From the IMG/VR virus record IMGVR_UViG_3300020429_000529, positions 454,762 through 498,568 of that record: a stretch of 43,807 bases of DNA; one strand, written 5' to 3'. Of this stretch, positions 2,836 through 38,426 are shown piece after piece (within the stretch, counting starts at the first letter, position 1; each line of letters starts with the position of its first letter). Origin of the DNA: a virus. A program made the translations under genes and the position numbers. The notes under the pieces were generated by a model. The model was not told the origin of the DNA, made no database searches, and saw only the letters and a program-made list of their open reading frames with translations.

Positions 2836-3504
2836 ATGGCTTCGAAGAAGAACAGCGGCAACGGCGGCTCCGGCGGTTCCACCCCGACCCTCGACAGCGC
2901 GACGACCGGCGCGATCGAGCAGCTTACCTCGGTCGCTCAGGGCGCTGTCGCGACTGCCCAGACTCACTCCGAGGCGCTCGCCACGGCGCAGACGGGCCTC
3001 GATGAGGCGATCGCTCAGGCGACGGCTGCCAACGAGCGGATCGTCGCTCTCGGCGGCACGCCCATCGAGATCCCCTCGTCCAACGGAACGGCGACGGCGA
3101 CCGCTCCGAGGCGTCGGCGCAACAGCGGCGGTCGGTCGAGTTCGAGCGCGCCTCGTACCAGCGGTCGGCGTCGTCCTCGCAACCCCTACGACTTCCCGAC
3201 CAGCATTCTGATCGCGATGGCTGGCAGTCGCGTCGGCACCGAGTTCGACAACGCTGCGATCCAGGCGGCGCTCCGCATCAACCAGGACGGCGGCTTCCGT
3301 ACCAACGCCAACGAGACCTCGCTGCGGACGCAGATCACGCAGAACATCGGGCGCGTCATGGACGGCAACCACGAGGCTCCGAAGGGTTCGTTCGTCCAGG
3401 TCCGTCGCGGCGTCTACGCCATCACCTCCGAGGGCAAGGCGTTCGTCAAGGGCTGCTCCCTCGCCGATGCGGTCGAGGCCGACGAGAGCGAGTCGTCCGA
3501 CTGA
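2836..3504 (+). CDS. DNA-binding protein with a Gly/Ser/Arg-rich N-terminus and a C-terminal Mrr_N-like winged helix
   Basis: Shine-Dalgarno site AAGGA. The C-terminus reads ...RTQITQNIGRVMDG...VQVRRGVYAITSEGKAFV, which matches the Mrr N-terminal winged-helix pattern. An RRRR/RRRPR tract is present. A terminator follows. Confidence 0.7.
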   Translation: MASKKNSGNGGSGGSTPTLDSATTGAIEQLTSVAQGAVATAQTHSEALATAQTGLDEAIAQATAANERIVALGGTPIEIPSSNGTATATAPRRRRNSGGRSSSSAPRTSGRRRPRNPYDFPTSILIAMAGSRVGTEFDNAAIQAALRINQDGGFRTNANETSLRTQITQNIGRVMDGNHEAPKGSFVQVRRGVYAITSEGKAFVKGCSLADAVEADESESSD

Positions 3505-3529
3505 CGACAGCCTCGGGCACGACTTCAAG

Positions 3530-3561
3530 GCCGTCGCTCCTTCGGGGGCGGCGGCTTTTTT
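3530..3561 (+). terminator. rho-independent terminator
   Basis: GCCGTCGCTCC, TTCG loop, GGGGCGGCGGC, then TTTTTT. Confidence 0.75.
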
Positions 3562-3587
3562 GCGCGAAATCCGATCGTTGGGGTTAT

Positions 3588-3599
3588 CAAAGATAGGTG
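3588..3599 (+). promoter_or_regulatory. CAAAGATAGGTG 12-mer, copy 1
   Basis: Exact 12-mer, downstream of the 3530-3561 terminator. Confidence 0.6.
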
Positions 3600-3845
3600 G
3601 GCGGCGTATACATAGTGGAGGGGAAGGATTCCTCTAACTGGGGCCTCGGCGCTATGGAGTTGGCGTCGGGGCCTTTTTCTTTCCGCATCTGCCCATGAGG
3701 GCTGTCTCGCTGACATCTATGGCAGACGGCTTCTCCTTGCCGTTGGGAAACTCGGTCGGCGGCGTCTCGTCGGGCGTCGTCGGCTTTACTCGCCACTGAC
3801 GGGCGGAACAATCGGGCATTTGCGTCATTCCCTGAAAGGACTCGG

Positions 3846-5405
3846 ATGCCTCAGATCACCCTCCCCAAATCGTTCTTCACCAAAGAGCGCGACAATCTCT
3901 ACTCTGACTGGCGGACCGCGTTCTGGCGCGAGGACTTCCAGAACAGCATCGACGCGGGCGCAACCGAGATCCGTATCTCCTTCGAGCAGATGGGAGATGA
4001 TCTCGCTGTCGAGTTCATCGACAATGGCTGCGGCATGACCCGAGATGTCATCGAGAATGTCTTTTTCGCGCTCGGAGAGACCACCAAGACCGGCAGCACG
4101 ACAGGCGGCTTCGGACGCGCCCGCATTCTGACATGCTTCGCTATGGGCTCTTACGAGTTCTGGACTGGCAACCTGCATGTTACGGGCGATGGCGCAAACT
4201 ACAACATCAACGACAACCAGCCTCATGTCAGCGGATGCCGCTTCCGAGTCGTCATCAACAACGAGACGGCAGAGAAGATGCGGACGGCGCTGAAGAAGGT
4301 TCTGCTGATGTCGCAGATGTCCTGCCATGTCTTCGTCGATGGCGAGCGTTGGACGAACTGGCTCCACAAGCGCCGGCTCGTCAAGACTGCGAGCTACGGC
4401 AGCATCCATGTCAACAAGAACGGACAGTTCACGAACCAGGTTATCGTCCGAGTCAATGGTCTTTGGATGTATTCCATCTACTGCGAGGCCAAGGCGCAGG
4501 TGATCGTCGAGATCGATCCGACCAAGAGCCGAGAGGTTTTGACCGTCAACCGAGACGGCATGCACTACAACTACAGCAACGACCTGCAATCATTCATCAA
4601 CGAGTTGGCTGTCGATACTCGATCGGCGCTGCGGGCACGCAGGCGCAAGACTCGGCTCATCGAAGGAACCGGCGTTCATACGACATCCCGTCCCATCGAC
4701 ATCCCGCAGAACGATTGGGAGGAAACCGCTCCTTCTGACACGATCTCTGTCGGCAACAATGTCGCTGTCGCTGCTGGCGGTACGATCGCCGCTGCGATCC
4801 AGGTCAACAGAGCGCAGTCGGTTCATGCCAACGAGGTTGAGTCTGAGATCATCAAGGGAGAGCAGATCGAGACTGGTCTGCCTGCGATCTACATCAACGA
4901 CGAGACCGATCCGATGGATCTGTCCCATGCGGCTGTTCGCAAGATCATCGACAACTTCGACCCGACCCGTTGGGTGCATGCGGTCAAGAAGGTTCGCGGG
5001 CACGAGCAGCCCTACCGCAAGGGAGCGAACTATCTCAAGCTGCTGATCGCATGGGAGGCATGTTGTCTTGAGGCGATCAAGGCGCTGCTGAACACGGACT
5101 ACGCTCCGCAGCAGTTGCGCTGGTTGGTCGGTTGGACGTTCTCTTTCGAGGACGGCGCATGTCATGTTGGTCTGTCGGAGGGTCATGCTCTTTGCTTGAA
5201 CCCTGTCAAGAAGGACGGCAAGCTGCGCTACAAGACCAGAGATCGCAGCGATCAGATTCGTCTGATGGCTCTTGCCAAGCATGAGGTTGCGCATGTCATC
5301 GTTGGTCCCCATAATGAGGACTATGCGGCGGTATTGACAGCAATCGACAGTCACTTCGATGCGCAGTCATGTTTCAAGGCGATTCGTCAAGCGCTTGCTG
5401 CATAA
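3846..5405 (+). CDS. GHKL-family (HATPase_c) ATPase-domain protein with a C-terminal HExxH motif
   Basis: Bergerat-fold motifs are present: EDFQNSIDAG, DNGCGM and GGFGRARIL. The C-terminus contains KHEVAHVIVGPH. A Shine-Dalgarno site AAAGGA precedes the start. Confidence 0.7.
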   Translation: MPQITLPKSFFTKERDNLYSDWRTAFWREDFQNSIDAGATEIRISFEQMGDDLAVEFIDNGCGMTRDVIENVFFALGETTKTGSTTGGFGRARILTCFAMGSYEFWTGNLHVTGDGANYNINDNQPHVSGCRFRVVINNETAEKMRTALKKVLLMSQMSCHVFVDGERWTNWLHKRRLVKTASYGSIHVNKNGQFTNQVIVRVNGLWMYSIYCEAKAQVIVEIDPTKSREVLTVNRDGMHYNYSNDLQSFINELAVDTRSALRARRRKTRLIEGTGVHTTSRPIDIPQNDWEETAPSDTISVGNNVAVAAGGTIAAAIQVNRAQSVHANEVESEIIKGEQIETGLPAIYINDETDPMDLSHAAVRKIIDNFDPTRWVHAVKKVRGHEQPYRKGANYLKLLIAWEACCLEAIKALLNTDYAPQQLRWLVGWTFSFEDGACHVGLSEGHALCLNPVKKDGKLRYKTRDRSDQIRLMALAKHEVAHVIVGPHNEDYAAVLTAIDSHFDAQSCFKAIRQALAA

Positions 5406-8160: not shown

Positions 8161-8338
8161 TGAGTCCCATGAGCGTATTCCGCTTACATCTCGGCCTGTT
8201 GCTTGCGTAAGGGGAAGACCCCCGCTAACGCATCTCTTGCGCCTTGAGATGACCTCAACCCACAACTGAAGAAACCGACTATCCCAAGAGGTGACAGCAG
8301 ACCGCGGTATGCTGATCGCTTGGCGGGGTAGCTCTTTT

Positions 8339-8420
8339 GGCCCCGTGGCGGAATTGGCAGACGCGCCAGATTTAGGATCTGGTTCCCTCGGGAGTGCAGG
8401 TTCGAAGCCTGTCGGGGCTA
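8339..8420 (+). tRNA. tRNA-Leu (anticodon TAG)
   Basis: Manual cloverleaf. The anticodon loop is TTTAGGA, the variable arm is long and the T-loop is TTCGAAG. The 1:72 pair is G:U. Confidence 0.75.
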
Positions 8421-8426
8421 TTTGAG

Positions 8427-8501
8427 GCCTGGGTGCGTCAATGTGGCAGAACGGCCAGCATGAGATGCTGGTGGATGGAGGTTCGAATCCTCTCTCAGGC
8501 A
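8427..8501 (+). tRNA. class-I tRNA (short variable loop) with anticodon GAG, identity uncertain
   Basis: The loop is ATGAGAT and the variable loop is 5 nt. The T-loop TTCGAAT is canonical. A73. Same scaffold as 9173-9247. Confidence 0.5.
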
Positions 8502-8514
8502 TTTGGAGACAGTC

Positions 8515-8670
8515 ATGACGGACGAAGCGAAGCAGGATCATGGAACATTCGTAGATCCCGCAGAAGCTCTGAAGCGGGCGTATGACGCAGCGCCAGAGAA
8601 GATGGCAGAGGTTCTCGGGGGCGAGCCTCATCCTCTGCCTGAGAAGAAGGACGAAGAAGACGACGACTGA
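8515..8670 (+). CDS. small acidic hypothetical protein (51 aa)
   Basis: A GGAGA Shine-Dalgarno site lies 7 nt upstream. GC3 is high. Not in the ORF track because it is under 60 aa. Confidence 0.4.
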   Translation: MTDEAKQDHGTFVDPAEALKRAYDAAPEKMAEVLGGEPHPLPEKKDEEDDD

Positions 8671-8677
8671 ACAACTT

Positions 8678-8757
8678 GGCCCTGTGGCGGAATTGGCAGA
8701 CGCGCCGGATTCAAAACCCGGTTCTTAGGAGTGCAGGTTCGACCCCTGTCAGGGCTA
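8678..8757 (+). tRNA. tRNA-Leu (anticodon CAA)
   Basis: The loop is TTCAAAA and the variable arm is long. Paralog of 8339-8420. Confidence 0.7.
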
Positions 8758-8868
8758 TTGGAAGGAAGAGACATGCTTTTACCTGGAAGACTTCAGCTTG
8801 CTCTTTTGCTCTCTGAGAAGATCAAGGCATGGCAAGAGCGAAGGAGGCTGAAGAAGGAGGCCTCATGA

Positions 8869-9072
8869 ATGATGGACTTCAGCAACCCGCCGATGCATCG
8901 CATCGAATCGTGGGTGAACAAGTCGTTCAGAATACCTGATGCAGAGTTCACAGTAACAGATGTACGAAAGAGTCCGAAGGGATCGATCGTCGTACATGGC
9001 AGAGCAGTAGGAATACACGGATCAGTCAACAGAGTTCATTCAGCTTACTGGCTGGCGAAATGGGCTCCATAA
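8869..9072 (+). CDS. hypothetical protein (67 aa)
   Basis: An AAGGAGG Shine-Dalgarno site is upstream. The gene lies between tRNA genes. Confidence 0.45.
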   Translation: MMDFSNPPMHRIESWVNKSFRIPDAEFTVTDVRKSPKGSIVVHGRAVGIHGSVNRVHSAYWLAKWAP

Positions 9073-9077
9073 ATCAA

Positions 9078-9161
9078 GCGGACATGGCGGAATTGGCAGA
9101 CGCGCAACCTTGAGGTGGTTGTTCCCTAACGGGAGTGGAGGTTCGAGCCCTCTTGTCCGCA
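9078..9161 (+). tRNA. tRNA-Leu (anticodon GAG)
   Basis: The loop is TTGAGGT with G37. The variable arm is long. The acceptor stem GCGGACA/TGTCCGC is perfect. Confidence 0.75.
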
Positions 9162-9172
9162 TTTTACCCGAT

Positions 9173-9247
9173 GCCTGGGTGCGTCAACTTGGCAGAACGG
9201 CCATGCTCAGAACATGGTGGATGGAGGTTCGAATCCTCTCTCAGGCA
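9173..9247 (+). tRNA. class-I tRNA with anticodon CAG, identity uncertain
   Basis: The loop is CTCAGAA and the variable loop is 5 nt (TGGAT). The T-arm is canonical. A73. Confidence 0.5.
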
Positions 9248-9258
9248 CTTCCCCATTC

Positions 9259-9342
9259 GGGGGCGTAGCAGAATGGCATATGCGGCGGACTTAAAATCCG
9301 CAGTCCTCTGGACAGTTGCGGGTTCGACTCCCGTCGCCCCTA
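9259..9342 (+). tRNA. tRNA-Leu (anticodon TAA)
   Basis: The loop is CTTAAAA, the variable arm is long and the D stem is 3 bp. Confidence 0.7.
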
Positions 9343-9344
9343 TT

Positions 9345-9356
9345 CAAAGATAGGTG
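9345..9356 (+). promoter_or_regulatory. CAAAGATAGGTG 12-mer, copy 2
   Basis: Exact 12-mer, directly after tRNA-Leu(TAA). CACTGAC follows 20 nt later. Confidence 0.6.
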
Positions 9357-9370
9357 CCACCTGCAGCGAC

Positions 9371-9399
9371 TTGCGTCACTGACCGATCTGCGGTATACT
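9371..9399 (+). promoter_or_regulatory. σ70-like promoter (TTGCGT, 17-nt spacer, TATACT) giving a leaderless or near-leaderless mRNA
   Basis: The -10 box ends 8 nt before ATG 9408. CACTGAC occupies the first 7 nt of the spacer. Confidence 0.4.
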
Positions 9400-9407
9400 G
9401 CACCCGT

Positions 9408-9800
9408 ATGGCAAAGTACGGCGTTACAACCATGAGCGCTATCGCTCGCTCTGATCGCTGGGATGCGAAGTACCACATCGCTCTCTCAGAGAACAAGGGT
9501 CGAGTCGAAGCCCTGATTGAGCGCCATGACCGAGACTCGCTCAACGACATGATGAGCAAGATCGGCTACAGCCCCGCAGCGTGGGAGGTCATCTGTCGAG
9601 GCAGCAAGCCGAAGTCCCAATGGCCCGGCATCATCCCCCGTACCTACTCGGACGAGGAAGCTGCTCTTTACATCATCCTGTCTACGTTCGATGATGCGAT
9701 CACTGATGAGCTTCAACGCCTGCTGACCGAGGTCTCGACTGTCGAGGCCAAGATCGCTGCTCGGGATGCAATTTCCGCGCAACTTGGAGAGATCGCATGA
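9408..9800 (+). CDS. hypothetical protein (131 aa)
   Basis: Start chosen at ATGGCAAAG, 24 nt after CACTGAC. The ORF track extends upstream through a TTG start. Confidence 0.55.
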   Translation: MAKYGVTTMSAIARSDRWDAKYHIALSENKGRVEALIERHDRDSLNDMMSKIGYSPAAWEVICRGSKPKSQWPGIIPRTYSDEEAALYIILSTFDDAITDELQRLLTEVSTVEAKIAARDAISAQLGEIA

Positions 9801-10258
9801 ACGATGGCGCTGAACTCGAACGCTTCCTCGACGAGGCCGAAACGATCACCGCCATCGATCTGTCGCTCGATATCGCCCGCATGAGAGCGGAAGGCGATAC
9901 GATGACAGATGACGAGTTCTCTGTGGAGAGATTCGACGCTGCGTATGAGTCAATGCTGCGCAAGAGCAATGCTGAGAGACTGACCAGTCGTCTGTCGGAA
10001 CTGTGGTGTAAGGACACCAAGCTCGATGGCGAGTTGGTCATGACTGTTACGGAGGACGGGATTCAGTTCGAGGGCATCGAAGCGTGGCTGCCTCAGGTTT
10101 ACGCTGTCAAGGTGCCGCATCGAGCAGACGAAGCAAGGGAAGCCGCTGCTGCTCATCTGGCTGATGACGAGAAACGACCTCAGATCATCGAGAGCGTGAA
10201 GGCGATGTTCTGGCGGAGTACGGCTCGTACATTCGTTGAAGAAGCGGAGGCTGACTGA
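9797..10258 (+). CDS. acidic hypothetical protein (153 aa)
   Basis: ATGA overlap with the upstream gene. GC3 is high. Confidence 0.55.
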   Translation: MNDGAELERFLDEAETITAIDLSLDIARMRAEGDTMTDDEFSVERFDAAYESMLRKSNAERLTSRLSELWCKDTKLDGELVMTVTEDGIQFEGIEAWLPQVYAVKVPHRADEAREAAAAHLADDEKRPQIIESVKAMFWRSTARTFVEEAEAD

Positions 10259-10587
10259 TGTGCAAGGCGCTGGCACTGATTCCCGGAGTTCGAGAAGAAC
10301 CTGACCGAGCCGAGATCGTTGAGGGCAAGAGTCCCGAGGAGATCATCGAGAGGGTCTTCGGCGTTGGCGCTGAGCTTCGGATGCGTATGCCTGTCGGGCA
10401 CGGGCGCAGCACTGTTCGAGTCATCGAGGGGAAGTACGCATGGAACGGCTATGGGACGCCGAACCTCTTGGCGAGTCGAGAGCTTGGTACGAAGCCAGGC
10501 ATGCGTCAGCTTGGCGGACCTGTGGTTGTTTTCTCACCTGATGCGCCGCATTCTGCGCCCGAGGATTGGTTGGCTCTCGCTCAGTAA
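10258..10587 (+). CDS. hypothetical protein (109 aa)
   Basis: Start and stop overlap the neighbours. Confidence 0.5.
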   Translation: MCKALALIPGVREEPDRAEIVEGKSPEEIIERVFGVGAELRMRMPVGHGRSTVRVIEGKYAWNGYGTPNLLASRELGTKPGMRQLGGPVVVFSPDAPHSAPEDWLALAQ

Positions 10588-10642
10588 GTGACAAGCGTTT
10601 GTGATATGATAGTTCCTGCGTTCTAAGTAGGAGCAATATCAC

Positions 10643-10924
10643 ATGACAGAGCAGATCGATTCACGCAGGCCCTCGTTCAACATCATGGAGCCGAACCCGC
10701 TATTGGGCAATCGGACTCTGATCCTTGTCAACCCTGAAATGAGCCGGTCGATCTGCGAGTTGGTCGAGTCGCTGGCGGACAAGCAAGCACTGACTGATGA
10801 GCAGAAGCATCTCTACGCCTTCGCCAAGCGGTTGAGGGCGCATTACTACGAGATGTCGCAGATGTTCTCGAAGAGGGAGAACGGCGAGACGTTCAGCAAG
10901 CGTCCCGAGGCTATTTCGGCTTGA
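10643..10924 (+). CDS. hypothetical protein (93 aa)
   Basis: Shine-Dalgarno site AGGAGC. Confidence 0.55.
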   Translation: MTEQIDSRRPSFNIMEPNPLLGNRTLILVNPEMSRSICELVESLADKQALTDEQKHLYAFAKRLRAHYYEMSQMFSKRENGETFSKRPEAISA

Positions 10925-11078
10925 TTGCAGATTTTTGCTGCTTTCGAGTGGAATAGTGAAGGGATTTGGGTAGTATGGTCGAAGAGGAAAGTCGCAATGC
11001 AGCAGATAATCGTCCATGTCGGAATCGTGATTACCACCTGAGGGAGGTTTTACGTTATCGTCTGGACGACAAGCGTAG

Positions 11079-11107
11079 AGGCCTCCCCGAGCAGGGAGGT
11101 CTTTTTT
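11079..11107 (+). terminator. rho-independent terminator
   Basis: GGCCTCCCCGAGCAGGGAGGTC followed by TTTTTT. Confidence 0.7.
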
Positions 11108-11114
11108 CGTGTAT

Positions 11115-11189
11115 GGGCGGGTAGCTCAATTGGCCAGAGCGCCTGGTTTACACCCAGGAGGTTTGAGGGTTCGAGTCCCTCCTCGCCTA
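11115..11189 (+). tRNA. tRNA-Val (anticodon TAC)
   Basis: The loop is TTTACAC and the T-loop is TTCGAGT. The variable loop appears to be 6 nt. Confidence 0.65.
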
Positions 11190-11205
11190 CTTCAGACATT
11201 TGATG

Positions 11206-11287
11206 GTGGCCTTGGCAGATAGGCAATGCACCTGGTTGTGGTCCAGGGTCCGTAAGGACAATGCGGGTTCGAATCCCGTAGGTCACC
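11206..11287 (+). tRNA. class-II tRNA-like gene (long variable arm) with anticodon GTG, identity uncertain
   Basis: The anticodon arm is CCTGG, TTGTGGT, CCAGG. The variable arm is 15 nt, the D stem is 3 bp, the T-loop is TTCGAAT and the discriminator is C. Confidence 0.45.
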
Positions 11288-11299
11288 CTTTAGATAGAC

Positions 11300-11371
11300 A
11301 GGCTTGTAGCTCAGCGGCAGAGCGCTCCCCTGATAAGGGAGAGGACGGGATCTCGGAATTCCCCAAGCCTA
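11300..11371 (+). tRNA. tRNA-Ile (anticodon GAT)-like with a degenerate T-loop
   Basis: The acceptor stem and anticodon arm are nearly identical to bacterial tRNA-Ile(GAU). The T-loop is CTCGGAA and lacks T54 and A58. Confidence 0.45.
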
Positions 11372-11372
11372 T

Positions 11373-11457
11373 TGGGTCGTGCGCCGAATTGGTTAGGCAC
11401 CCGACTGATAATCGGGGAGCGTTAAGCTCTATGCAGGTTCGAGTCCTGTCGGCCCTA
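11373..11457 (+). tRNA. class-II tRNA-like gene with anticodon GAT, identity uncertain
   Basis: The anticodon arm is CCCGA, CTGATAA, TCGGG. The 16-nt variable arm forms a hairpin. Position 1:72 is a mismatch. Confidence 0.4.
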
Positions 11458-11476
11458 TTGACGATACACTGAATGA

Positions 11477-11550
11477 GGCCCCTTAGCTCAGTTGGCCAGA
11501 GCGCTTGCATGACACGCAAGAGGCCGTTGGTTCGAGTCCAACAGGGGTCA
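11477..11550 (+). tRNA. tRNA-Val (anticodon GAC)
   Basis: Clean class-I cloverleaf. The loop is ATGACAC. Confidence 0.75.
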
Positions 11551-11555
11551 TTCGG

Positions 11556-11630
11556 GGAGCAGGTACAAGTTAGTCCACATTCCGCGGATGCGGAGCGACG
11601 TTGGCTCAAGATACCTGCTCCCTCTTTTTC
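11556..11630 (+). terminator. long imperfect hairpin (~70 nt) followed by TCTTTTTC
   Basis: GGAGCAGGTA pairs with TACCTGCTCC, with a nested CCGCGGATGCGG hairpin. A T-tract follows. Confidence 0.45.
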
Positions 11631-11632
11631 AT

Positions 11633-11707
11633 GGGGGCGTAGCTTAGCTGGCCCAAAGCATACGACTCATAATCGTGAGATCGTCGGTTCGAATCCGACC
11701 GCCCCTA
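11633..11707 (+). tRNA. tRNA-Met (anticodon CAT), elongator or Ile2-like
   Basis: The loop is CTCATAA. There are no initiator features such as a C1:A72 mismatch or GGG/CCC pairs. Confidence 0.7.
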
Positions 11708-12064
11708 CTTTTCAGGCACGCATAAACCCAAGCGCAACAACGACTTGCTCCTCGGAGCCGAAAAAAGTCGCGCAGAAAGACCACTGACGCTTGAAGGTGC
11801 AATGAAGATTGGGTATACTTCTCGAACCGCCGCAGCGAGCAGCAGCGAGCTACGACGGACTTTGGCAACCGAATACTGAACGATGCCCCGACGCTCATCT
11901 GAGACGATCTTCGGATCAACTGAGCCGAGCTTAGGGGCACCTTGGGGCTGAAAGCCGAACCGACAAGAATGGTCGATTTAGTACGAGCAGAGTCGTGAAA
12001 CACTGATCTGCGAAGGACGGACATACCGATCATCATTCAGTAAGAAAGTCGTAGGCCCCGCCTT

Positions 12065-12405: not shown

Positions 12406-13470
12406 AGATTGGCCCAACAGCAATGGGAAAGCCAATCGACATACGCAGAGATCCGAACCTGCTTGCAGAAAGGATCAAAGCTTCAAGATTCAGGTACGAA
12501 TAGATGGAAACATCTTCAAATACCTGAGTACGCCTCAGTTCGCTATGTCTCGTACATGACGGCTGAGCGAGCAAGAAACCGAAAGGGAAACTTGCTTGAG
12601 GCACACCAACTTGAGAGAGTTGGAAGCATGTGGCCGCTAACGGGCACTGACCGGCGACGGTCTGAGCAACGAGCGACAGTCATCCGAGCGAGGAAACTCG
12701 TTGGGATGGCTTTCACCAAGGCTTGTCAGTTCAACCTTCATGGTGACATAGAAGAACTGACCTCTGACTGGTCCCGGTCAGCCAAAAGGGACAGGCATGT
12801 TGGCATACCTGAGTATGTCCTACCGCCTCGTTCCAGACGCGTGGGTCGTCTGTTCGCCCTCTGCACGTTCTTCGAACCTGCATGGTGACAACGGCTTGAA
12901 AATATGGCTCATGGTCGAGTCAAACACGGTCCCTTGGTTCAGGCTTAACGGGTAGGCCTCAAACGGCCAACAGTCTGCGTCAGCGTTAAAAGCGTAACGC
13001 AGGCTTTCCCAATACCTTGCCAAGCTCTCAAAGAGGGAGGGCAGCAAGGCTCTGGCTGCTCACGGCTAAACCAAGAGTGAGAGGCAGTTCATGCCTTCAT
13101 AAGACTCGGCGGCCTTCCTTCGATGCCTGGTAAACATCGATGAGCGGAGGATGCCTGTGTCAATGTAGAAATGGGCTACAGAGGTCCGGGTGAGAAACCC
13201 GGCCCTTCTGTTTTCCGCAGTCGAATGCGCAATACCTGATCTCTGCCGCCCTTGGAAAAGGCACGATCAACGCAGAAGGATGGGCGCTTCGACGGTCGAG
13301 ATCAGTTCGGCGAATGTTCTGCAGAACTCGTCGGGCACGGAGATGTGACGGCTTCAATCCGTCATGGCGAGTTTCGATTCTCGTCCTCGGTTTTCCTCAG
13401 CGGCGGGCGTCGATGGCTACGGCGCAGCAGAGACTCAAGCCCCTTGTCTTCGGACGAGGGGCTTTTTTCG
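12406..13470 (+). ncRNA. about 1 kb region with poor coding potential, ending in a strong terminator. Candidate long structured RNA or regulatory region.
   Basis: The only long ORF, 12409-12888, lacks the GC3 bias seen in every accepted gene. Hairpins are present, for example GATTGGC...GCCAATC at 12406-12437. Terminator at 13438-13468. Confidence 0.3.
13438..13468 (+). terminator. rho-independent terminator
   Basis: GCCCCTTGTC, TTCG loop, GACGAGGGGC, then TTTTTTCG. Confidence 0.8.
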
Positions 13471-15792: not shown

Positions 15793-16245
15793 ATGAGCGA
15801 CGGCGAAGCCACCAGCACCACCCCCAAAACCAAGCGCAAGTCCATCGAGGTTCCGCAGTTCGACAGCGCCGACGCGCTGATGACGCTCGTCCAGGGCCAT
15901 CGTACCGCCACCGCCGACGACAACGCCCGCCAGTTCACCGGCGAGGGCTTCAAGTCCGCTGGCGGCATCGACAGCCTCCCCCTCAACACGAGGGCTCTCA
16001 TGGCGGCTTCGCTCGTCATGTCGATCGCCAACGACGCCCAGGGCGACGGCGACGAGGGCAAGGCGGCGACCGCTGTTCTCGGCATTCTGACGCCGTTCGT
16101 CGGCGACGCGCAGACCCATGCGACCGAGGCGGCGAAGCTCAGCGCCTACGAGCAGATCGCTGCCCTCGAAGGCATCGACGCTCGCAAGGCCGACGAGACT
16201 TCGGCGCAGTTCATCGCTCGCGTCAAGAAGGCCACGAAGGGCTAA
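15793..16245 (+). CDS. hypothetical protein (150 aa)
   Basis: GGAGAAACAGCC then ATG. A terminator lies downstream at 16290-16328. Confidence 0.6.
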   Translation: MSDGEATSTTPKTKRKSIEVPQFDSADALMTLVQGHRTATADDNARQFTGEGFKSAGGIDSLPLNTRALMAASLVMSIANDAQGDGDEGKAATAVLGILTPFVGDAQTHATEAAKLSAYEQIAALEGIDARKADETSAQFIARVKKATKG

Positions 16246-16289
16246 TCGCCCTCGACAACTGACCCACCACTCTTCTCCTCGGAGAGGCC

Positions 16290-16328
16290 ACGGGCACGGT
16301 CCTTGCACAACGGGCCGTGCCTTTTTTC
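16290..16328 (+). terminator. rho-independent terminator
   Basis: GGCACGG...CCGTGCC followed by TTTTTTC. Confidence 0.7.
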
Positions 16329-16383
16329 TCGCCACTGACAATTCGAACCTGCCGCTACGCTGTACCTCAAACAGGAGACAGCC

Positions 16384-16590
16384 ATGAGCTTCGGAACCCC
16401 TCCCGAGAACCCGCCCAATAGCACGGCGGTCTGCATTGATGTTCCGCAGGAAATGACCCCCGAACAGCAGCGGGATTTCGCTCAGCGGATGAGCCGAGCC
16501 GCCCGAGAGATGGGCTTCGATGGCGCTCAGGCGATATGGGTGCAGTCATACGGCGACCGCTTCGGCGATCCCGTCTTCTACATCCCATGA
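16384..16590 (+). CDS. hypothetical protein (68 aa)
   Basis: Shine-Dalgarno site CAGGAGACA. The stop TGA lies inside CCACTGAC. Confidence 0.55.
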   Translation: MSFGTPPENPPNSTAVCIDVPQEMTPEQQRDFAQRMSRAAREMGFDGAQAIWVQSYGDRFGDPVFYIP

Positions 16591-33668: not shown

Positions 33669-33881
33669 ATGAATGTCGGCGAGCTAATTCGACAGCTTCA
33701 GCAGTTTCCTCCCGAGTTCCCCGTCTGCGTCTACGACGAGGGAGAGCCCGAGGCGCATGAGATCCTCGCGGCAGAGGAAAGCGAATCGGACGGCGTACTC
33801 TGGACAGACAGCGCGTGCGATGGATCGCATGGCGGCACCGAGCACCCGACCGTTCAACTGAGGATCAGGGCAACCCACTGA
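33669..33881 (+). CDS. hypothetical protein (70 aa)
   Basis: CACTGAC, then ~23 nt, then ATGAATGTC. The stop lies inside CCACTGAC. Confidence 0.5.
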   Translation: MNVGELIRQLQQFPPEFPVCVYDEGEPEAHEILAAEESESDGVLWTDSACDGSHGGTEHPTVQLRIRATH

Positions 33882-33904
33882 CGGGTAGCGGAGCAGGTAA
33901 GATC

Positions 33905-34339
33905 ATGAGCAATGCAACCGAAACAATCAACTCGTCAGACCTCGGACATTTCACGGGCACTTCGCAATGGTATGTCGCCAGCATCTTCCTGCGGCGGCGG
34001 TTCCTCCTGACGGACGGGACCATGTACCTCGCCAAGCGAGGGTGCCACTGGCTGTTCGATGTCGTCGCCAGCGTCCTGCATACGCAAGGGCGAGCCTTCA
34101 ACGAGAAGGCGGAAGGCTTCTCTGTCTGGCGCATCGAGAAGGTCACTGATGTCGCTGGCGTTGCGGCCCGAGTATCAGCATGGACCGATACGCCTGGCAA
34201 CAGCGGTCGTCTGTATGTCCAGGACATTCCCTACACTGACTTCCCCTTCGACGAGTTGGGAGAACAGTTCGACTTCTATGTCGAGGGCATCGGCATCCCT
34301 GAGAGCCCTTGGGTCGCGCTTCTCAAGAGCGAACACTGA
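33905..34339 (+). CDS. hypothetical protein (144 aa)
   Basis: CCACTGAC, then 22 nt, then ATGAGCAAT. Confidence 0.55.
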   Translation: MSNATETINSSDLGHFTGTSQWYVASIFLRRRFLLTDGTMYLAKRGCHWLFDVVASVLHTQGRAFNEKAEGFSVWRIEKVTDVAGVAARVSAWTDTPGNSGRLYVQDIPYTDFPFDELGEQFDFYVEGIGIPESPWVALLKSEH

Positions 34340-37384: not shown

Positions 37385-37420
37385 ACTCAAGAGAAACTGC
37401 CCGCCCCTGAAACATGGGGC
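37385..37420 (+). terminator. rho-independent terminator
   Basis: GCCCGCCCCTGAAACATGGGGCGGGC followed by TTGTTTT. Confidence 0.7.
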
Positions 37421-37461
37421 GGGCTTGTTTTCCACTGACGCATAGCCGACCGAGCAACGGC

Positions 37462-37929
37462 ATGAGCAGCGAACATCAGTCAGCGACAGGCACAGCGACC
37501 CGCATCAAGAACGGGCGCTTCACGATCCACTCGAACCGTTCGGGCGAGCATCGTACCTTCCAGATCAAGACCGTCATCGGCGACAAGAAGAAGCCCAAGG
37601 ACGCATTCTGCAACAAGATGGCAGGCAATCGGATTGTCGGCCTCCTGACAGGCCCCGACAACGAGAGCAGCTATACCAACTTCGGATTCGTCAACGACGA
37701 CGGTATCCGTTGCTGGCGGGCGCACAGCGACAAGCGACCCCTCGCCGATATCCTCTGGCGCTTCGCCGTTGAGGGCGTTCACGACGCTGAGAGCGGGCGT
37801 ATCATGCTTGAGGGCGTAGATGGCTACATGCTCTGCGAGGGCAAGTGTATACGCTGCAATCGTACACTGACGACTCCCGAATCCATCGAAAGCGGCATCG
37901 GACCTGTTTGCGCCGGGAGGGCAACATGA
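37462..37929 (+). CDS. hypothetical protein with a C-terminal zinc-ribbon-like motif (155 aa)
   Basis: CEGKCIRCNRTL...GIGPVCAGR. Cassette start ATGAGCAGC. Confidence 0.55.
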   Translation: MSSEHQSATGTATRIKNGRFTIHSNRSGEHRTFQIKTVIGDKKKPKDAFCNKMAGNRIVGLLTGPDNESSYTNFGFVNDDGIRCWRAHSDKRPLADILWRFAVEGVHDAESGRIMLEGVDGYMLCEGKCIRCNRTLTTPESIESGIGPVCAGRAT

Positions 37930-38352: not shown

Positions 38353-38426
38353 GCCCCGGTAGCTCAACTGGATAGAGCGGCGGACTTCTAATCCGCAGGT
38401 TACAGGTTCGAATCCTGTCCGGGGTG
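38353..38426 (+). tRNA. tRNA-Arg (anticodon TCT)
   Basis: Clean class-I cloverleaf. The loop is CTTCTAA and the T-loop is TTCGAAT. The 1:72 pair is G:U. Confidence 0.75.

Follow-up and report, generated by a model that had tools for sequence, protein, structure and literature searches.

Predicted short-variable-loop tRNALeu and long-arm GUG and GAU tRNA genes in two tRNA arrays of a viral genome

The stretch of viral DNA considered here (43,807 nucleotides, positions 454,762 to 498,568 of the IMG/VR record IMGVR_UViG_3300020429_000529; below, the window) carries two arrays of tRNA genes, and in several of these genes the structural class of the tRNA disagrees with its anticodon. By the textbook rule, the bacterial tRNAs of class II, those with a long variable arm, are tRNALeu, tRNASer, tRNATyr and tRNASec only. 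Here, two genes with Leu anticodons have a variable loop of 5 nucleotides (nt), and two genes with the anticodons GUG and GAU have a long variable arm. We think it reasonably probable that these mismatched genes are structural isoforms of the tRNAs named by their anticodons, working and charged accordingly. The genes were called with Infernal (Rfam model RF00005, gathering score 29 bits) and with ARAGORN, and folds were obtained by covariance model (CM) alignment and as minimum free energy (MFE) structures. Infernal found 13 tRNAs in the window, 12 of them within 8339-11707 at 45 to 68 bits; all 12 cover model positions 1 to 71 with a complete cloverleaf, and ARAGORN returned the Infernal set minus the gene at 11300-11371. 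CCA is encoded in none of the window tRNA genes. The 12 genes are numbered T1 to T12 in order, and L numbers denote fetched comparison loci.

8339-8420, + strand: T1, class II tRNA-Leu(UAG); RF00005 51.7 bits, also called by ARAGORN; G1.U72, A73 and G37; 97.6% identical in the relative L007
8427-8501, + strand: T2, type I tRNA-Leu(GAG) with a 5-nt variable loop; RF00005 47.2 bits; A73, 3-bp D stem, A37; D loop AAUGUGGCAGA
8678-8757, + strand: T3, class II tRNA-Leu(CAA); RF00005 49.3 bits; 100% identical in L007
9078-9161, + strand: T4, class II tRNA-Leu(GAG) with G37; RF00005 49.2 bits
9173-9247, + strand: T5, type I tRNA-Leu(CAG) with a body as in T2 and A37; RF00005 46.7 bits; the sole CAG anticodon in the set
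9259-9342, + strand: T6, class II tRNA-Leu(UAA); RF00005 59 bits
11077-11104, + strand: strong hairpin with a T run, resembling an intrinsic terminator, 10 nt upstream of the second array
11115-11189, + strand: T7, tRNA-Val(UAC), canonical class I; RF00005 65.4 bits
11205-11287 (including G-1 at 11205), + strand: T8, predicted long-arm tRNA-His(GUG); RF00005 48.2 bits with a 12-nt insertion in the variable region
11300-11371, + strand: T9, class I tRNA-Ile(GAU) with an aberrant T arm; RF00005 52.5 bits, missed by ARAGORN
11373-11457, + strand: T10, long-arm tRNA with anticodon GAU; RF00005 45.3 bits; class II cloverleaf as MFE fold
11477-11550, + strand: T11, tRNA-Val(GAC), canonical; RF00005 66.5 bits
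11633-11707, + strand: T12, tRNA with a CAU anticodon (Met or Ile2), canonical class I; RF00005 67.6 bits

Much of what the original prediction, made by reading the letters, had described was found again. The coordinates, anticodons and architecture of its four class II tRNA-Leu genes (TAG, CAA, GAG and TAA) all match the Infernal and ARAGORN calls, and the set does hold all five Leu anticodons. Also there is the near-identical short pair with GAG and CAG, in which the variable loop has 5 nt and the T loop is UUCGAAU; the two genes differ in the anticodon arm and in two D-loop bases. The long-arm genes with GTG (11206-11287) and GAT (11373-11457) each have a 3-bp D stem, and CM alignment and MFE fold alike give them the class II cloverleaf. 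Refolding had been named as a check that could refute the observation. The mismatch survives it, because the short loop of T2 and T5 and the variable-arm hairpin of T8 and T10 persist in both the CM alignments and the MFE folds. By Infernal, ARAGORN and the folds the genes are real, and so is the disagreement of class and anticodon with the textbook rule. Details added here are G-1 and C73 of T8, the Leu-type D arm and A73 of T2 and T5, U1.U72 and the extra base of T10, the CAT gene at 11633-11707 and an Arg(TCT) gene at 38353-38426.

By their sequence features, T2 and T5 are ordinary members of a known, little-discussed kind of tRNA, type I tRNALeu, as the features, abundance and covariation of the family and the published record all indicate. 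Both join a Leu anticodon and a variable loop within the 4-6 nt range of this type to a Leu-type D arm, A73 and covariation. Their core has A73, U8, A14-A15, G18G19 within a AAUGUGGCAGA or AACUUGGCAGA loop (AAYUGGCAGA-type), a 3-bp D stem and a UUCGAAU T loop, and the D arm is that of the adjoining class II Leu genes (UGGCGGAAUUGGCAGACGCG). Set against the identity rules for leucyl-tRNA synthetase (LeuRS) taken from PMC6614811 and PMC2377443, both genes have A73 and the tertiary core U8-A14, G18G19 and U54-A58, the columns of which are invariant or nearly so in an alignment of 49 short tRNALeu sequences; what they lack is the class II architecture, with a 5-nt loop in place of the long variable arm. 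In Aquifex aeolicus tRNALeu, identity rests decisively on A73 and the tertiary core, with no identity elements in the anticodon or the variable arm, and loss of the variable arm mainly lowers affinity (PMC2377443).

The short type is found in eight related contigs (the window, L007, L009, L013, L014, L015, L017 and L222), with the anticodons GAG, CAG, UAG, UAA and CAA and no non-Leu anticodon. The syntenic relatives L007-L018 and L222 were obtained through neighbouring proteins: the open reading frame (ORF) at 9797-10258, used as query, gave one weak viral locus and the contig L007, and the ORF at 10643-10924 gave L222, while the alignment of a 211-aa ORF was too divergent to serve as a search query. 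T2 has orthologs in L007 and L014, and the L007 ortholog of T5 carries a compensatory change from U4-A69 to C4-G69. In the 49-sequence alignment 97.9% of the cells are paired, and double changes occur in 20 of 20 pairs; the observed covariation was reached by none of 500 shuffles, and slid registers came nowhere near it. Among 160 distinct short relatives the anticodon is Leu in every case and A73 is present in 157. The D arm, A73 and these exclusively Leu anticodons rule out the earlier suggestion that T2 and T5 put Leu anticodons on a non-Leu scaffold. It had also been remarked that A37 follows G36 in T2 and T5, in place of the G37 of the class II TAG and GAG genes. The difference is there, but it is no oddity, since 47 of 64 short NAG tRNAs have A37 (versus 12 of 40 class II).

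Short tRNALeu genes are abundant elsewhere. They make up at least 111 of the first 120 matches in a pattern scan of IMG/VR, and in a scan of GTDB 111 of the 120 matches listed, some being single genes of Actinomycetota and others members of big tRNA arrays. Unbiased base rates came from phage-like metagenome loci gathered in a scan with a metallophosphoesterase alignment, mostly from distant phages; there, among the matches listed, six of eight Leu tRNAs are short. Annotated tRNA-Leu genes of 74-77 nt also occur in cultured phages (Shigella phage Sf14, Cronobacter phage LPCS28 and cyanophage P-RSM6). In the literature, the LeuRS of Streptomyces coelicolor leucylates the type I tRNALeu(CAA) of that species (PMC6614811), and a horizontally transferred mycobacterial tRNA cluster includes a short-loop tRNALeu(TAG) (PMC6582537). 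That T2 and T5 act as functional isoforms charged according to their anticodons seems to us very likely.

Two further observations concern these genes. The anticodon arm of T2 (8453-8475) has a self-complementary loop, AUGAGAU (A32-U38, U33-A37), so that its MFE fold shows a 7-bp anticodon stem with a 3-nt loop; the same arm is kept in the distant relative L014 (12446-12521). T4 and T5 are a tandem duplicate of T1 and T2 at about 80% identity (internal blastn, query 886-1048 versus 147-302).

T8, judged by its identity nucleotides, is a tRNAHis carrying a hairpin in the variable region. That region is 15 nt long with a 4-bp hairpin (GUCC/GGAC); the D stem has 3 bp, and the anticodon loop is UUGUGGU with G37. 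The His identity elements are present, G-1 (11205) being paired with C73 (11287) in the MFE cloverleaf (z -2.9) and GUG standing in a 7-nt loop. A class I tRNA would have a variable loop of 4-5 nt and a 4-bp D stem, and T8 has neither; C73 and G-1 also keep it apart from class II tRNAs of the nematode nev-tRNA kind with Leu (A73) or Ser (G73) identity. Its acceptor is identical to that of an IMG/VR class I tRNAHis, and in a comparison with 1373 tRNAs the nearest neighbours of its acceptor and anticodon arms are all His. An ortholog in L404 (c1473-1555) differs by C5-G68 to U-A, U7-A66 to G-C and a variable-arm C-G to G-C, with no disruptive change. L404, like L533 below, is a locus of IMGVR_UViG_3300020429_000539, a 488-kb Tara marine viral contig. 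On this contig a class I His paralog has a T8-like 3-bp D arm and the same T stem, and thus the long-arm form differs essentially by the variable-region hairpin. The tRNAHis genes of L008, L009, L011, L015 and L222 are class I.

Long-arm tRNAHis is found well beyond these contigs. A targeted scan of IMG/VR gave at least 20 different tRNAHis(GUG) sequences, 83-89 nt in length, that have a hairpin in the variable arm; G stands at -1 in 26 of 26 IMG/VR long-arm His matches, with C73 in the listed sequences, and 16 sequences were aligned for comparison. Searching INPHARED with two of the IMG/VR long-arm His sequences returned nothing useful. A cultured example is the 86-nt tRNA-His(gtg) annotated in Arthrobacter phage Talia1610 (L464, PQ559666.1, 107022-107107), which has a long arm, G-1, C73 and an encoded CCA. 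Immediately upstream of this gene stands one for an RNA ligase, a hint of a tRNA repair context. We regard T8 as probably a functional isoform that would be charged as its anticodon indicates.

The case of T10 is less clear-cut. It has the anticodon loop CUGAUAA on the stem CCCGA/UCGGG with C29-G41, A73, a 3-bp D stem and a variable-arm hairpin GAGC/GCUC. From the identity set of Escherichia coli tRNAIle(GAU), as used here reportedly that of Nureki et al. 1994, it has G34, A35, U36, A37 and A38, A73 and C29-G41; T10 might thus be described as an Ile-type acceptor and anticodon arm on a long-arm body. Its ortholog in L533 (c4148-4234) has nine substitutions, none structure-breaking: C12-G23 has become U12-A23, two variable-arm pairs are swapped and U72 is A, closing the 1-72 pair. 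The T10 acceptor, U1.U72 included, recurs on class I tRNAIle(GAU) in L007, L011 and L222, the variable arm of T10 is shared by a long-arm GAU gene in L015, and about 25 further long-arm GAU tRNAs with several body types are present in IMG/VR. That T10 is a functional isoform charged by its anticodon we consider possible, if slightly on the doubtful side.

U1.U72, with U at -1 and A73, is conserved in one tRNA-Ile(GAU) lineage (window 11373/11456, L007 6032-6106, L011 13680-13752 and L222 11273-11349) that spans class I and class II bodies; in the 488-kb contig the pair is U1-A72 (L533 c4148-4234). The adjoining class I gene T9 comes near the E. coli tRNAIle determinants, with C4-G69, U12-A23 and C29-G41 all present. 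Its T arm is aberrant: the T loop CUCGGAA already reported was seen, Infernal also flags a U.U at the last T-stem pair (U53.U61), and the T loop of the L007 counterpart is canonical. Non-canonical T loops recur, with GUCGGAA in the L015 tRNA-His (12920-12992) and AUCGUUN (A54...U58 for U54...A58) in the L222 His and Val tRNAs (10835-10908 and 11495-11568) and about 10 more in the IMG/VR sample. Some of them may be functional alternatives and not signs of decay.

The original prediction had called such genes chimeric, and we had ourselves early on imagined Leu D, variable and T arms grafted on His and Ile acceptor and anticodon arms in T8 and T10. Within the related contigs the nearest modules of T8 and T10 did look Leu-like; against 1373 tRNAs, isotype information lies only in the acceptor and anticodon arms, and the D and T arms are not isotype-specific. 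The D arm of T8 is present, besides, in the class I His paralog. Grafting is accordingly downgraded to an unproven idea.

Class switching is genuine but not unique to these genes, since other phages commonly have such variants. Both the short tRNALeu and the long-arm His and GAU types turn up frequently in IMG/VR, in tRNA arrays of bacteria and among some cultured phages, and the view that the set goes beyond the ordinary phage tRNA supplement does not hold. Among 1212 and 1006 tRNAs of viral and genomic arrays, long-arm Asn, Gln, Ile(UAU), Arg, Lys, Met and other tRNAs come to about 2%. Short and long copies of the same anticodon stand together in the window (GAG and GAU), L009 (UAG and UAA), L222 (UAG and CAU), L015 (GAU), L404 (GUG) and L533 (GAU and GUU). 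The 488-kb contig also has long-arm Lys(UUU), Arg(UCU) and Asn(GUU) genes beside class I copies (L404 c6748-6834 and c1727-1799; L533 c259-350 and c4519-4601). A conserved family of long-arm tRNA-Ile(UAU), with the variable-arm loop motif GCGCCAGAUNAGCGC, occurs in phage and bacterial tRNA arrays, at L036 3104-3195, L047 1804-1892 and L091 8004-8096 in IMG/VR and in the genomic loci L225, L251, L273, L310 and L337; it accounts for 6 of 39 Ile tRNAs in the genome sample.

How these genes might serve the phage is suggested by its codon usage. In the + strand ORFs of the window, CUC and CUU are 53% and CUG 32% of Leu codons, together 85%; AUC and AUU are 97% of Ile codons (AUC 82%), and GUC and GUU are 85% of Val codons. 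By this usage GAG and GAU, each present twice, and T5 as the one CAG gene would serve the commonest phage codons. After transcription, processing and CCA addition, host synthetases would probably charge the isoforms according to their anticodons, and the charged isoforms would then read the dominant phage codons. T2 and T5 retain the set read by bacterial LeuRS (A73, the U8-A14, G18G19 and U54-A58 core and the Leu-type D arm); LeuRS takes no information from the anticodon or from the sequence of the variable arm. On this reading T8 is a GUG tRNAHis with G-1:C73 plus a hairpin in the variable region, and T10 combines an Ile-type acceptor and anticodon arm (GAU, A37, A38, C29-G41 and A73) with a long-arm body.

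One can speculate that short and long pairs of one anticodon would provide redundancy against nucleases that read one tRNA architecture or sequence. There is precedent: the variable loop of tRNATyr is where retron-Eco7 and Septu cleave, and phage T5 tRNATyr escapes them by having a distinctive one (PMC13096335, PMC11555353), while variants of the anticodon loop evade anticodon nucleases (PMC10264068). By analogy, evasion of tRNA-cutting host defences is a plausible use of the isoforms.

The arrays also show signs of gene turnover. In L007, a cassette of about 584 nt interrupts the ortholog of T6 (3296-3963) within the anticodon loop, after ...GGACUUA; the cassette holds a different, complete class II tRNA-Leu(UAA) (3331-3413) and an ORF for an HNH endonuclease of 144 aa (3480-3914). 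It has the look of a homing cassette, destroying one tRNA gene and supplying a replacement of its own; Rfam gave no group I intron in it, the non-coding sequence being too short for one. HNH, LAGLIDADG and TnpB genes and a group I intron are found in the relatives' arrays. Homing traffic of this kind explains the patchy identity of T9 to T11 to L007 (56-60%, versus 95-98% in the flanks) and gives a mechanism for tRNA-gene shuffling, and homing endonucleases are a likely engine of tRNA gene turnover. In the tRNA region of L013 a group I intron (RF00028, 62 bits) at 16083-16536 overlaps the 3' part of an HNH ORF (15839-16393), and a 114-nt RF00005 match at 11864-11977 may be an interrupted tRNA. 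In the window, small ORFs occupy the spacers that separate T2 from T3 (8502-8677) and T3 from T4 (8758-9077); L007 lacks most of this or has other sequence in its place (165 and 218 gap columns), which points to indels between otherwise near-identical tRNA genes.

Such traffic raises the question of whether the mismatched genes are decaying or transitional, neutral by-products of recombination and homing-endonuclease movement, with T9 and perhaps T10 on the way to pseudogenes. The divergence of T9-T11, the split T6 ortholog and the endonuclease genes of the relatives are in line with this idea, as are the non-canonical T loop, the U.U pair and the ARAGORN miss of T9 and the poor acceptor stem of the L015 long-arm GAU gene, which falls below the Rfam threshold. 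However, the compensatory changes in the orthologs of T8 and T10 and the strong covariation of type I tRNALeu indicate selection on structure, and the types recur in many unrelated phages. We therefore regard decay as unlikely overall; for T8 and the long-arm GAT gene in particular, whose orthologs differ by compensatory changes, the earlier suggestion of pseudo-tRNAs is improbable.

Certain observations do weigh against isoforms charged by their anticodons. T10 lacks the Ile determinants C4-G69 and U12-A23, having G4-C69 and C12-G23, and it has two oddities, the mismatched U1.U72 and one additional C after position 9. Next to A73, its core is Leu-like, with U8, A14-A15, G18G19 in a GAAUUGG loop, U48 and U54-A58. 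On these grounds LeuRS could compete for T10, and T10 could be mischarged with leucine. Compared with the nev-tRNAs, it has the Leu-type bases but also the extra base between 9 and 10, U1.U72 and three unpaired bases 3' of the variable arm. The class II Lys(UUU) of the 488-kb contig shares the T10 scaffold at 79.5% identity, which would also fit one scaffold charged independently of its anticodon. In the closest relative, L007, the position of T10 is taken by a class I gene, so that the long arm is not required there. For T2 and T5, E. coli LeuRS fails on the Streptomyces type I tRNALeu (PMC6614811), and charging would thus depend on the LeuRS of the phage host. The L007 copy of T8 is 100% identical to it; this was rejected as proof of selection, since flanks that are themselves 97-98% identical make the identity uninformative. 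Finally, no nuclease or defence link was observed in this analysis.

Some of these features are what one would expect of mistranslating tRNAs, in which an A73 long-arm body (T10 or the relative's Lys(UUU)) is charged by LeuRS, so that AUY codons, and AAA in the relative, are partly read as Leu, as by nev-tRNAs. LeuRS needs no anticodon (PMC2377443) and nev-tRNA(Ile/Gly) is leucylated (PMC3333845); to this T10 adds its Leu-like core with A73 and no C4-G69 or U12-A23, and L404 the same scaffold with UUU. On the other hand, the loop CUGAUAA and C29-G41 of T10 are those of tRNAIle, the L533 ortholog regains U12-A23 and U1-A72, and with AUC as 82% of the Ile codons in the window ORFs wholesale misreading would be costly. 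Isoleucyl- and lysyl-tRNA synthetases both lean strongly on the anticodon, which also counts against misreading, and the idea has no bearing on T8 (C73, G-1), T2 or T5. We rate it a little below decay.

Least likely of all, and in our view improbable, is that the genes make decoys or non-translating tRNA-like RNAs, soaking up tRNA-cleaving or tRNA-modifying defence enzymes or serving a non-ribosomal tRNA-dependent enzyme: class I and class II copies of one anticodon do adjoin, defence nucleases for the anticodon or variable loop exist and phage tRNAs counter them (PMC10264068, PMC11555353, PMC13096335), and a G-1 tRNA-like species that is charged but untranslated is known (PMC5389517), yet every part needed in translation is kept and co-varies (7-bp acceptor, 5-bp T stem, T loop canonical in all but T9, U33-containing anticodon loops of 7 nt and the identity nucleotides), the anticodons fit the most-used phage codons, and T5 is the only CAG tRNA of the set.

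A broader proposal may be put forward as a long shot. Large phages might systematically encode architecture-switched second copies of many tRNAs (short-arm Leu; long-arm His, Ile, Lys, Asn, Arg and Met), perhaps as armour against shape-reading nucleases made by host or phage; or the A73 long-arm scaffold with GAU or UUU might be an anticodon-blind LeuRS substrate by which Ile and Lys codons are deliberately recoded to Leu while infection proceeds.

As to the surroundings, the contig that holds the window is about 498 kb long and has been assembled repeatedly from marine metagenomes (ENA ERZ17089788 NODE_1289088, Tara/JGI 3300020386 and NCBI MDTD01). From gene content and syntenic relatives we infer that it represents a marine phage-like genome of very large size, about 0.5 Mb. 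The genes of the window are on the + strand and mostly ORFans; both tRNA arrays have the same orientation and lie in an ORFan-rich part. Pfam and PHROGs searches of about 40 window ORFs gave matches to a DnaB-like AAA ATPase, HATPase, a metallophosphoesterase, DUF6011 and DUF6876, and none to a synthetase, RNA ligase, CCA-adding enzyme or nuclease. Recognisable features further downstream are limited to a DUF6876 protein (33815-34339), a protein with a C-terminal DUF6011 motif (37414-37929) and a lone canonical tRNA-Arg(UCU) (38353-38426); some 40 other ORFs gave no Pfam match. INPHARED holds no close phage for the window region or for T2, and the T2/T5 sequence itself was not found in IMG/VR. 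T6 (Leu UAA) and T12 (CAU) have an identical acceptor stem and 5' start (GGGGGCGUAGC.../...CGCCCCUA) despite differing in identity and class. The motif GCGGTATRCTG stands on the + strand just before the first array (8304-8314) and just before the ORF at 9408 (9390-9400); allowing one mismatch there are four matches versus 0.9 expected, and it may be a phage promoter mark. A sigma-70 promoter scan gave nothing above chance.

Taken together, phage tRNA arrays break the textbook long-arm rule both ways, repeatedly and under structural selection. Within the phage-like samples covered here, short tRNALeu outnumbers the long form; dozens of viral contigs carry long-arm His or GAU tRNAs, and so does at least one cultured phage. 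For annotation, a mismatch of class and anticodon in a phage tRNA is no evidence of a pseudogene or chimera. If charged by their anticodons, these genes would be natural experiments on how far synthetases, EF-Tu and the ribosome tolerate changes in body shape, and scaffolds for tRNA engineering. If the switch of architecture protects against tRNA-cleaving defences, it would be a new route of counter-defence besides anticodon-loop and variable-loop variants.

Short tRNALeu is already known, whereas long-arm tRNAHis and tRNAIle(GAU) are widespread in sequence databases and we found no description of either from phages in the literature searched. The nearest likeness to T2 and T5 is type I tRNALeu(CAA) of S. 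coelicolor, where a short variable loop likewise occurs beside class II tRNALeu in one cell and the architecture is the same. T2 and T5 differ in being phage-encoded and in forming two isoacceptors (GAG and CAG), with five anticodons across the relatives; the Streptomyces tRNA is the one shown to be leucylated. The cluster of the Mycobacterium mucogenicum clade (PMC6582537) and phages Sf14, LPCS28 and P-RSM6 are alike in having a short tRNALeu in a dense tRNA array with an HNH endonuclease, unlike the host's class II isoacceptor; the mycobacterial report mentions the short tRNALeu in passing, and the phage genes are merely annotated.

The tRNATyr of phage T5 facing retron-Eco7 and Septu, and the anticodon-loop variants (PMC11555353, PMC13096335, PMC10264068), resemble the present genes in that the phage copies differ in the variable or anticodon loop. 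Such tRNAs restore translation after host tRNA cleavage and give a rationale for altering or removing a variable arm. They keep their class, however, and their effect is experimental, whereas here a whole arm is lost or gained.

Nematode nev-tRNAs, eukaryotic noncanonical V-arm tRNAs (Hamashima et al., PMC3333845), are class II with Ile or Gly anticodons, and T10 would be their formal counterpart in a bacterial virus. The nev-tRNAs hold the Leu identity set and carry Leu, while T8 has the His set (G-1, C73) and T10 an Ile-type anticodon arm. The allo-tRNAs and the (8/4) tRNAHis and tRNASer (Mukai et al. 2017, PMC5389517) are likewise irregular long-arm tRNAs with many anticodons, partly from phage clusters, and include an unusual phage tRNAHis. 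Allo-tRNAs have an 8/4 or 9/3 branch and a long D stem with a tetraloop, and the (8/4) tRNAHis is without G-1 and has A73 or U73. T8 and T10, by contrast, have a 7/5 branch, a 3-bp D stem and a loop of 9-10 nt, and T8 has G-1:C73.

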